Positions 12,486 through 15,575 of a stretch of 27,271 nt of DNA are shown here, piece after piece. Position numbers and translations under genes: made by a program. The stretch is from an uncultured Candidatus Saccharimonas sp. GTDB lineage: Bacteria > Patescibacteriota > Saccharimonadia > Saccharimonadales > OMJO01. The stretch is from the NCBI GenBank assembly GCA_964349795.1, contig CAYGHF010000001.1, positions 1 through 27,271 of the forward strand, read 5' to 3'. The notes under the pieces were generated by a model. It ran no database searches, had not been told where the DNA came from, and saw only the letters and a program-made list of their open reading frames with translations. Position 1 is the first letter of the stretch. Each line of letters begins with the position of its first letter.

Positions 12486-12680
12486 GGGTTCAGACTTCTC
12501 GCAATAATCACTCATTCCGCACTTGATCGTAACAACAGACAGCACCAATGACGTGCTGCAATCGCCCATTCTTCGCTCAGCGTAGCTACGGCTATGCCTC
12601 TCTCAGATTGAACAATTTCGCTAACGTCAGCTACTCTCTGTTATCTACGACAAGTACAAAATGAGTGATAGTCTCAACCC
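12486..12680 (-). other. Rod-like ~195-nt hairpin in the groESL 5' leader
   Basis: Ends pair: gggtt/aaccc, agact/agtct and a perfect 10-bp atcactcatt(12507-16)/aatgagtgat(12660-69), continued by stacked helices whose G-U pairs work only on the minus strand. Confidence 0.6.
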
Positions 12681-12681
12681 A

Positions 12682-12708
12682 TTAGCACTCATAATACCCG
12701 AGTGCTAA
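12682..12708. promoter_or_regulatory. CIRCE operator (HrcA binding site)
   Basis: Exact consensus TTAGCACTC-N9-GAGTGCTAA upstream of groES-groEL. Confidence 0.97.
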
Positions 12709-12720
12709 TTTGCTTGTCAA
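12691..12720 (-). promoter_or_regulatory. sigma70-type promoter of groESL, overlapped by CIRCE
   Basis: TTGACA(12720-15)-N18-TATTAT(12696-91) on the minus strand. Confidence 0.75.
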
Positions 12721-12738
12721 CAGTTAGACTTAACCAAC

Positions 12739-12760
12739 AAAAAAACAGCCTTCGTGGCTG
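12739..12760 (-). terminator. Intrinsic terminator
   Basis: Minus strand CAGCC-ACGAA-GGCTG followed by T7. Confidence 0.75.
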
Positions 12761-12853
12761 CCTGATAAGTGAGAATTACGTTGAGATTACAGTGTGTGGC
12801 CAGAGACCGGAAGGAGGGGGTGGCGCGCAGCGCATGGTATGACCGCATGTGCG

Positions 12854-13316
12854 TGTCGTCCATGACATACGCGTCACCCCACTCCAACCGGAAACAACAC
12901 TCCGCCCAGCGTCCGGTCAGATCAGCGTAGAGGCTGATCTACGCGTATCTCACCGCCCCCCTTGGGATGACGCCCTGACGGCTTCGCCACGTTTGCGGTC
13001 TTGCCGCTTGGCGTCGCCTTGCTTGCGCTTCTCTTCCTTCTCTCGAAGGATCTGTGCCTTTGACTTTGACATATATCACCTCCTCAGGTGCTTGAGTGTC
13101 TACCGACGACCCATCTGGCCGGTGTATGCCCGAAAGGGCAACGGCTTCTGTCGGGCCAGACCAACCTCTCGAACGACTCGGTCGTCGTCCAGGTGGTAGG
13201 GGTCGCTGGCTGCACGCCGCAGCGCATCACGCACAAGTGTGCGTTCTGAGCCCTCACGTGCTCTTTTGTCTGACTTAGACACTACATGCTCCTGGTTGTT
13301 CATGTCGTCCATGACA
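12854..13316. repeat. 14-bp direct repeat, each copy a small hairpin (12854-12867 and 13303-13316)
   Basis: tgtcgtccatgaca occurs twice; the minus strand reads TGTC-ATGGAC-GACA. Confidence 0.85.
12950..13072 (-). CDS. Unannotated 40-aa basic small protein MSKSKAQILREKEEKRKQGDAKRQDRKRGEAVRASSQGGR
   Basis: AGGAGGTGA (13084-76) precedes ATG 13072, with 6 nt between AGGAGG and ATG; purine-rich coding-like sequence; 14 K/R and 6 D/E; stop TGA at 12952-12950. Confidence 0.6.
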   Translation of the reverse strand: MSKSKAQILREKEEKRKQGDAKRQDRKRGEAVRASSQGGR

Positions 13317-13485
13317 GGGGCTGGGTTTCACGTATCCTTCCGTGAAATACATAGTCACAATAGTGACTGCGCGTTTCACAGAAGGATGTCTGTAATCTCA
13401 ACGTACATGTGCCCGAACCTTGCGGCTCAAGGACACAACAAAATCAACAAAGCATGGCAAACCATGATTTAATCGATTTAGCAAT

Positions 13486-13513
13486 ATTATACCCCCGATT
13501 CTGTATTTTGCAA
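13486..13513 (-). promoter_or_regulatory. sigma70-type promoter pointing into the structured element
   Basis: Minus strand TTGCAA(13513-08)-N16-TATAAT(13491-86). Confidence 0.6.
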
Positions 13514-13547: not shown

Positions 13548-14132
13548 ATGCCCAAAACCGACTATTCCCCTGTTGTCGACATGCCGGCAAACAGTCCCTT
13601 TTTTGATTTCTCAATTGGCAAGATTACAGACGTTATGGCAGACGCAACTACCGGCATTGGCAAATACAACGAACGTCGGCAAGACGTCTATAGTGACTTT
13701 TTTCATGGCGAGCGCAACATACACGTTGGTGTCGACCTGTTCATGCCCGCCGGCACAACCGTGAAAGCCTTTTCCAAGGGCGAAATATTTATGACTGCCT
13801 ACAATAGTGCCCTAGGTGACTACGGCTATACGATAATCTGCAAACATAAACTTCACGATGGACGTGAAATATACGCTCTGTATGGTCATCTGAGTAGTGG
13901 GTCTACCTCGCATAAGTTGGCTGGCCAAACAATCAGCCAAGGTGAAACAATCGGCTGGATCGGAGATGAATCAGAAAATGGCGGCTGGCCACCACATGTT
14001 CACTTTCAACTATCTTGGGAAGCCCCAGAAACATGCGACATGCCCGGAGTCGTAGCCCAAAAAGACTTACCCGAGGCACTTCAACTATACCCCGACCCAG
14101 CATCAATATTGGACACTGTTGATTCAAAATAA
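13548..14132 (+). CDS. M23 family metallopeptidase, no signal peptide
   Basis: HxxxD (HVGVD), YGHL and HxH (WPPHVHFQ); TACAAT lies 6 nt before ATG. Confidence 0.88.
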   Translation: MPKTDYSPVVDMPANSPFFDFSIGKITDVMADATTGIGKYNERRQDVYSDFFHGERNIHVGVDLFMPAGTTVKAFSKGEIFMTAYNSALGDYGYTIICKHKLHDGREIYALYGHLSSGSTSHKLAGQTISQGETIGWIGDESENGGWPPHVHFQLSWEAPETCDMPGVVAQKDLPEALQLYPDPASILDTVDSK

Positions 14133-15130: not shown

Positions 15131-15575
15131 AGCACAGATGGAGAAAGAGGATGGCGGGGCGACCAAGTGGTCGGGAGATGGAGGTAGTTTCGGGGCGAGA
15201 GCCGCGACTGACCTTCGGTATCCCGACCACTTGGCGCTGGATGCCACTGACTCGACGGGTGGGCAGATTTCGCCTCTTTCAACTGTGGTTGCTGAGACCA
15301 CGTCTACCCGCTGTCTGTGCTTAGTGGCATGCCCCTCCCACACGGTGATTGCTCGTCCCTCTCTGGGCGGATACCTTGGGACCCCGCGTGGTACGGAGAC
15401 TGGGGTGATGCGGGTAGCTTGCGCTACGGTGGATGCGAGTGCATCTCTCATTCCCCCCAAATGATGTCATGCTCTTGCGAGCGGCTTTTTTGGGCTTTTT
15501 CTCCTCTCTTGTCTTACAACTAGGTATCAAAACACACGGGCGTTCTGGTACCTAGCTGTAAAATCCATCTGTGCT
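15131..15575. ncRNA. Second candidate structured element bounded by a perfect 12-bp inverted repeat; strand uncertain
   Basis: agcacagatgga(15131-42)/tccatctgtgct(15564-75); 14-bp perfect helix 15163-76/15221-34; atgccact/agtggcat; 13-bp helix 15514-26/15549-61 with one non-canonical pair; several tetraloop hairpins. Confidence 0.45.

Follow-up and report, generated by a model that had tools for sequence, protein, structure and literature searches.

A self-contained transcription unit with a predicted RNA of ~740 nt appears to lie on the minus strand, upstream of the chaperonin genes, in the stretch of DNA analysed here (the window, 27,271 nt, which is contig C1 of its source assembly). Judged from its sequence, this RNA is a new kind of structured messenger RNA and not a pure non-coding RNA, since the folded RNA carries small protein genes. 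Its scaffold consists of two 5′ hairpins, a 13–18-bp clamp and, towards the 3′ end, another hairpin, a C-rich tract, and a terminator; it is shared by 16 other units of the Saccharimonadales (17 in total), most of them directly upstream of groES. The anatomy and its conservation, the covariation of the leader hairpin HP2 and of the clamp P1, the extreme folding, and the coding cargo were observed directly. On balance, it is probable that the unit belongs to a Saccharimonadales-specific family of end-clamped, heavily folded mRNAs, in which the scaffold would serve in cis as a chassis for stability and processing.

The genome of the window, labelled G000, is a 693-kb assembly in 104 contigs (91% complete, GC 0.45). 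The runs that hold the window are groundwater and freshwater metagenomes, and the sole run labelled 'RNA' is probably DNA.

Anatomy of the unit

An earlier, sequence-only reading of this DNA had placed a promoter, a bulged GCAA hairpin, a 16-bp inverted repeat, and a terminator on the minus strand, and all of them were found there as claimed (Table 1). The interior, which had been described as GC-richer, measures 0.58–0.64 GC inside the unit compared to 0.45 for the genome. Read on the minus strand, the unit has the M23-peptidase gene on one side and groES-groEL on the other. HP2 consists of a 6-bp lower helix, a 2-nt 5′ bulge, a 5-bp upper helix, and the GCAA loop, while the C-rich, G-poor tract is mostly the 3′ strand of the 3′ hairpin and precedes the 3′ arm in all units. 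The TATAAT of the promoter-like site is kept in related units. A strain in run X5 diverges in sequence upstream of 13523, which marks the unit boundary there.

Table 1. Predicted features of the unit and its flanks, with positions in the window
Feature	Position	Strand	Basis or remark
M23-peptidase gene	13548-14132	plus	neighbour of the unit
Promoter-like site TTGCAA-N16-TATAAT	13486..13513	minus	10/12 matches; sigma-70-type
HP1, AU-rich hairpin at the extreme 5′ end of the predicted transcript	13441..13479	minus	folding
HP2, bulged hairpin	13408..13437	minus	folding and covariation
P1 clamp, 5′ arm: core ACGTTGAGATT plus ACAG	13390..13405	minus	perfect 16-bp inverted repeat
P2, long hairpin directly inside the clamp	13334..13387	minus	inverted-repeat pair, 25-nt arms
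ORF1 (type A), 70 aa, hydrophilic	13100..13312	minus	relatives in G004b, L070, G007
Shine-Dalgarno sequence GAGGAGGTGA of ORF2	13076..13085	minus	sequence
ORF2, 40 aa, Lys/Arg-rich	12950..13072	minus	common to units with unrelated ORF1s
3′ hairpin CCGGUUGGAGUGGGGUG ... CACCCCCUCCUUCCGG	12807..12891	minus	fold and comparison
P1 clamp, 3′ arm: CTGT plus AATCTCAACGT plus A	12777..12792	minus	perfect 16-bp inverted repeat
Intrinsic terminator, 8-bp stem and T-run	12737..12763 (stem 12763-12743)	minus	closes the unit; equivalents in relatives
groES promoter with CIRCE operator	12681..12720 (CIRCE 12681-12709)	minus	outside the unit; starts directly after its terminator
groES-groEL	12457-10506	minus	downstream of the unit

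The leader of groES also varies, as a contig of run X8 skips 163 nt of it (window 12505-12667), and strains thus differ by the presence or absence of the long, hairpin-like leader of groESL.

A family of units with one scaffold

From 5′ to 3′, the units share the order TATAAT, HP1, HP2, ACGTTGAGATT, interior, 3′ hairpin with C-tract, AATCTCAACGT, terminator, and CIRCE-groES promoter. The interiors are 450–1550 nt long and GC-rich, with no sequence similarity between genera, and a BLASTN comparison of the window's interior with 60 relatives returned no match because only the ends of the unit are conserved. The proposal that relatives could be reached by BLASTN failed for the interior; it was through groES neighbourhoods that the scaffold was found, and with it the covariation in clamp and leader hairpin. 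Among the groES neighbourhoods of ten other species from the same GTDB family, six have the architecture. Units upstream of groES are found in G001, G003/L073, G004 (two units in tandem), G007, G009, G010, L070, L072, and L074–76 and, in other families, in G022, G029, and G105. Searches of metagenomes and proteins were the source of L070, L072, L073 (G003 in its complete form), and L074–L077, while a sampling of the order yielded G022, G029, and G105 and four more. Of these four, the unit of G044 is ~3.5 kb upstream of groES and those of G091, G072, and G140 have no groES within the stretch fetched; units not adjoining groES occur in three families.

A covariance model, R2, was built from HP2 plus the 5′ arm with a hand-set structure. 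Of 151 species genomes from the order it matches 10, G000 among them, spread over at least 9 GTDB families, and within G000 it matches this locus only. When 401 genomes were scanned for the clamp 11-mer, close convergent pairs were seen only at such units and the rest were at the level of the control pattern. In the genomes of the family the 11-mer is confined to this locus, apart from single chance-level matches, and an unpublished genome among the 401 (G264) has only two isolated matches and is not used to support any conclusion. The pattern of 3′ arm plus CIRCE gave mostly chance matches in genome contigs, and otherwise only the already-known family; in metagenome contigs, two of its nine matches were real.

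Assemblies often break in or beside the units (G003:C19, G008:C17, L074–L077), as would be expected if strains differ in the cargo region or if folded, GC-rich DNA assembles poorly. In G007 (L016, 3309-4112), an 800-nt GC-rich stretch that folds with a z of −7.3, and has no clamp motif, lies between the 3′ arm and the CIRCE promoter.

Folding and covariation

As had been anticipated for a structured RNA, both strands fold better than dinucleotide-shuffled controls: the 742-nt transcript reaches −335 kcal/mol compared to −255 ± 7 for 20 shuffles (z −11.7), and the antisense strand has a z of −9.2. Every unit has a sense-strand z between −5.7 and −14.3, with 66–70% of its bases paired, and many long-range helices are within the coding parts; the fold is multibranched and not a rod. 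The nested helices proposed from the sequence were borne out in part, with several present in the minimum-free-energy fold, tctggcc/ggccaga and ggagtggggtg/caccccctcc among them.

The leader hairpins carry the signature of RNA. Across seven sequences, 95.7% of the cells of HP2 are paired and five of its ten pairs have changed on both sides, a covariation score reached by none of 500 shuffles, while slid controls were 13–49% paired. HP2 also holds an invariant G.U pair that is valid on the minus strand only, as the opposite strand would have a C.A mismatch. A hairpin equivalent to HP1, of different sequence, is found in eight related leaders. P1 is Watson-Crick in 232 of 255 cells over the 17 units, with both-sided changes at two core positions and four inner positions; these compensatory changes uphold the proposal that the 5′ and 3′ ends of the RNA pair. 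The 11-bp core of P1 is invariant within the family, but two of its positions have changed on both sides in G140 and G044, and the inner pairs, three to seven in number, vary freely (ACAG/CUGU, AUGGC/GCCAU, GCGG/CCGC, and GUGG/CCGC with a wobble). The mismatches of P1, 7 G.U versus 11 A.C with the A.C mostly at helix ends, have no overall strand bias, and thus P1 alone cannot separate an RNA helix from a DNA repeat; it is HP2 and HP1 that tell the two apart. P2 is kept with compensatory changes among type-A units (G004b and L070; the types are described below), and a UUGAG motif is present in HP2 and also in P1.

The RNA belongs to no family in Rfam, in agreement with the sequence-only reading. 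Nothing in the whole window or in six related loci matched at gathering scores, including tmRNA, RNase P, SRP, 6S, group I and II introns, self-cleaving ribozymes, and ROOL, GOLLD, HEARO, or OLE, and the best matches in the region at permissive thresholds were at chance level (E ≥ 2.8).

Coding cargo

The interior of the units is best read as coding cargo and not as a conserved non-coding RNA, with genes that encode small, highly charged proteins. The start of the main ORF falls ~105–135 nt after the 5′ arm in 14 of 16 units, mostly behind a good Shine-Dalgarno sequence (SD). Type-A units (this window, G004b, L070, and G007) have an ORF1 of 53–83 aa with the pattern G-[SA]-x-R...L-[RQ]-x-x-A...P...D-x-D, for which pN is 0.38–0.52 and pS 0.63–0.90. 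Type-B units (G001, G003/L073, G004, G009, G010, L072, and L074) have one ORF of 150–260 aa with the motif CxIQPGCW and a C-terminal FRVFKPRGETYA, and its dN/dS is 0.24–0.5. Kinship between the type-A and type-B ORF1 was rejected, the two being unrelated by hhalign. ORF2, of ~40 residues (MSxSKA...RxDRRxxxAVKASxGxGR; pN 0.37–0.52, pS 0.79–0.95), occurs in type-A and type-B units of several genera, is absent from three type-B units (G001, G010, and the upstream unit of G004), and has retained SD, start, length, and the two termini across three genera. In ORF2 as in type-A ORF1, synonymous differences approach saturation, at about double the non-synonymous level. All three ORF families (ORF2, type-A ORF1, and type-B ORF1) are each found in several genera with fewer non-synonymous than synonymous differences.

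Searches of Pfam, NCBIfam, PDB sequences, and the ESM Atlas assigned no family to any of the ORFs. A full HMMER scan of 1.8 billion proteins found relatives of type-B ORF1 only in such units, one other match aside, which was to a repeat-rich 2490-aa protein with surface-repeat (DUF11) Pfam domains and was taken as spurious. The AlphaFold2 model of the type-B protein has a mean pLDDT of 53 and is confident only for an N-terminal basic helical hairpin (pLDDT 85–94). All of the cargo proteins are rich in Arg/Lys helices and acidic tails, and ORF1, ORF2, and their relatives are hydrophilic and rich in Lys, Arg, Asp, and Glu, without a hydrophobic stretch.

It is unlikely, though it deserves to be weighed, that the scaffold alone is functional as a pure structured ncRNA and that the ORFs are incidental frames in a GC-rich, folded sequence. 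Such an RNA would account for the extreme folding and for a scaffold that is conserved beyond any cargo, with no similarity by BLASTP between the cargo proteins of units from different families. It would also suit the ORF1 of the window, which lacks a convincing SD and which in two strains, one of them within the source sample, has a frameshifting 2-nt insertion at codon 10, as well as the ORF2 of L070, which has a 1-nt deletion early in the gene. A GTG located 18 nt upstream could rescue the frame of ORF1 in the strains with the insertion. Weighing against an incidental origin of the ORFs are the retention of the signals, length, and termini of ORF2 while its synonymous sites saturate, the dN/dS of type-B ORF1, the fixed distance and the SDs of the ORF starts in 14 of 16 units, and the failure of the interior to align as RNA between genera. 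Where the sequence-only reading offered a novel large ncRNA or a dual-function RNA, it is the dual-function RNA that comes closest, and the pure ncRNA finds no support in an interior that appears to be coding and is not conserved as RNA between genera.

The start of ORF1 is covered by a hypervariable patch (13273-13326, 54 nt), with seven substitutions and a 2-nt insertion between strains; seven of the 15 strain differences listed inside the unit fall in it, and two haplotypes of it coexist within one sample (run X1). There was no sign of a diversity-generating retroelement, as the substitutions in the patch are not adenine-specific.

Proposed mechanism

For the end-clamped mRNA that is preferred here, a sigma-70-type promoter would drive a ~740-nt transcript that opens with HP1 and then the bulged HP2, and the 16-bp P1 helix would tie its 5′ and 3′ parts together. 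The transcript would carry two small genes, ORF1 (70 aa) and ORF2 (40 aa), and would end with the 3′ hairpin, the C-rich tract, the 3′ arm of P1, and the intrinsic terminator, ahead of the CIRCE-controlled groESL promoter. The 5′-terminal hairpins and the clamp may shield both RNA ends from exonucleases, RNase III could plausibly cut the long perfect duplex and so trim the RNA to a defined end-paired form, and the conserved hairpin or the clamp may be bound by the small basic proteins that the same RNA encodes. We infer a cis-acting role for the scaffold in stability and processing because conservation falls precisely on the parts suited to shielding or defining the RNA ends: the hairpin at the 5′ terminus, the perfect duplex between both ends, and the terminator.

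Trimming at the clamp is plausible as the genome encodes RNase III (G000:C13:1287-1670), with the limitation that a P1 of 13–18 bp is shorter than classical RNase III stems. RNase III processing stems flank mature RNAs, as in the 16S and 23S precursors and the early mRNAs of phage T7. The unit resembles these in that distant complements, hundreds of nucleotides apart, form a long perfect duplex round a structured, GC-richer RNA; it differs from them in the length of the duplex, 13–18 bp compared to two or more helical turns, and in enclosing a fast-evolving mRNA. Rho was not found in the 91%-complete genome, which makes a Rho-dependent role of the C-rich tract, as a rut site, unlikely. The predicted unpaired probability of the start sites (0.38) is that of the average for the RNA (0.35), and hence there is no sign of translational gating; occlusion of the SD as a gating mechanism is unsupported, since no preference for sequestering the SD regions was seen.

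The 11-bp core and the G.U pair in HP2 are more invariant than pairing alone would require, which hints at a sequence-specific partner of the scaffold, for which the encoded basic peptides are candidates. Only the position beside groESL suggests a stress-related role. A bolder and rather unlikely version would have a portable RNA chassis (HP1-HP2-P1 ... 3′-hairpin-C-tract) read by a dedicated factor, perhaps the encoded Arg/Lys-rich peptides, to yield either a ribonucleoprotein with a long lifetime or an mRNA destined for packaging or export; lineages would exchange one small charged protein for another, unrelated one within the same chassis.

Comparison with known systems and other explanations

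In principle, the closest known systems are the end-paired type I toxin mRNAs, although the unit lacks the small hydrophobic, membrane-active peptide that defines them. Like hok/sok and the aapA1/IsoA1 of Helicobacter pylori, the unit would be a very stable small-protein mRNA with paired ends and its own promoter and terminator (PMC5416894, PMC6733600). A locus of this type, in which 5′-3′ pairing silences the mRNA of a toxic small protein until its 3′ end is processed, a principle well documented for aapA1 and hok (PMC5416894, PMC6733600), would explain the end pairing, the very stable fold, and the small ORFs. Unlike those systems, the peptides of the unit are hydrophilic, basic, and Lys/Arg-rich without a hydrophobic helix, which argues that it is not a type I toxin locus. 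No antisense gene was evident from the sequence of the window's unit, the plus strand of which has a single weak promoter-like site (9/12 matches). In further contrast to hok/sok and aapA1/IsoA1, the SD regions and start sites are not preferentially occluded, the RNA is 2–4 times longer, some of the cargos reach 260 aa, and the locus is single, syntenic, and vertically inherited. A toxin-antitoxin function is accordingly judged very unlikely, and the analogy with hok and aapA drawn in the sequence-only reading stands for the pairing of the ends and falls for a toxin-type product.

There is likewise only a slim chance that the RNA is principally a stable ribonucleoprotein, or is exported or packaged, with HP2 and P1 as the recognition signal for a dedicated factor and a cargo that is lineage-specific. 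A conserved scaffold round unrelated cargo, the Arg/Lys-rich helices in all of the cargo together with the basic helical hairpin predicted by AlphaFold2, and the occurrence of UUGAG in both HP2 and P1 are consistent with such a role; the cargo, on the other hand, has no homology to any RNA-binding family.

An element acting at the level of DNA, be it a MITE of the IS630-Tc1-mariner type, the remnant of a transposon bounded by terminal inverted repeats, or a segment flipped by a recombinase, is scarcely credible. The perfect 16-bp inverted repeat with TA at both of its outer ends in the window's copy, which had led to both ideas being raised, the good folding of both strands, and the frequent contig breaks inside units would fit one. 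The unit is nevertheless present once in the 693-kb assembly by BLASTN, the clamp 11-mer is limited to this locus in the genomes of the family, and, set against the outside promoter, HP2, and the C-tract, all 17 units point the same way; one locus per genome and one orientation lead to the rejection of both the MITE and the inverton. The position is syntenic, and the flanks beside the arms differ between species and are mostly not TA, which is found beside both arms in G000, G001, L072, and L073 while other outer bases are found in G007, G004, G010, G009, and others. No strand-change joint was seen in the assembled contigs of four runs and no recombinase gene is adjacent, the neighbours being groES/groEL, the M23 peptidase, and a 273-aa orphan. 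Finally, HP2 is outside the repeat and covaries as RNA.

Two further comparisons can be drawn. The genomes of ssRNA phages and the viroid-like Obelisk RNAs are coding RNAs with extreme secondary structure, and the hallmarks of an Obelisk or viroid-like RNA are replication as a circular RNA, a rod-like fold, and the lack of a DNA copy. One larger ORF with one of ~40–50 aa superficially recalls the layout of Oblin-1 and Oblin-2, but an Obelisk-like replicon was rejected for a unit that is chromosomal, syntenic DNA in many genomes, with a conserved neighbourhood, a promoter, a terminator, and a multibranched fold; no replicase or ribozyme was found in the unit or in the relatives' loci examined. 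The large RNAs ROOL, GOLLD, HEARO, OLE, and raiA are similar in size class, high structure, and narrow phylogenetic range, but these, introns (including an intron within a small RNA), and ribozymes were set aside as no covariance model matched, and unlike those RNAs the interior of the unit encodes proteins and is not conserved as RNA.

Significance

To our knowledge, the RNA biology of the Patescibacteria, with their tiny genomes, is almost wholly unexplored. In the units described here conservation is higher in the clamp, the two leader hairpins, and the 3′ module than in the proteins encoded between them, and the mRNA is, over its whole length, as tightly folded as the genome of a viroid or RNA phage. 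Should it turn out to govern stability, processing, or localisation, the scaffold would add a new device to post-transcriptional control and offer a handle for expressing genes in organisms that are hard to manipulate. The portable chassis, if true, would mean that ultra-small epibiotic bacteria control gene expression in a new way. The analysis also defines three orphan families of small proteins (ORF2, type-A ORF1, and type-B ORF1).

Other elements in the window and elsewhere

In unrelated high-GC metagenome contigs (L065, L068, and L071), a tandem direct repeat of AATCTCAACATAAGCTGC is located upstream of a CIRCE element, which may be chance or a shared promoter-proximal motif. The end of the window's own contig (26981-27271, minus strand) has CCGCAAGGTTTGGG and CTTGAGATTG in common with HP2 and P1, and parts of this stretch are found again on contigs C37, C69, and C7 (46 nt at 100%, 53 nt at 87%). 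The stretch went undetected by model R2 and may be a repeated element that breaks the assembly. A second end-clamped unit, of the same layout and different sequence, is present at 15131-15575 on the minus strand. Its clamp, GCACAGATGG/CCATCTGTGC, is followed by T7, and a 15-bp hairpin comes directly after the 5′ arm. A small ORF with a basic product (15530-15321) is also present, and a C-rich tract precedes the 3′ arm. This unit folds with a z of −8.0 and has 76 nt that are 79% conserved in G001.
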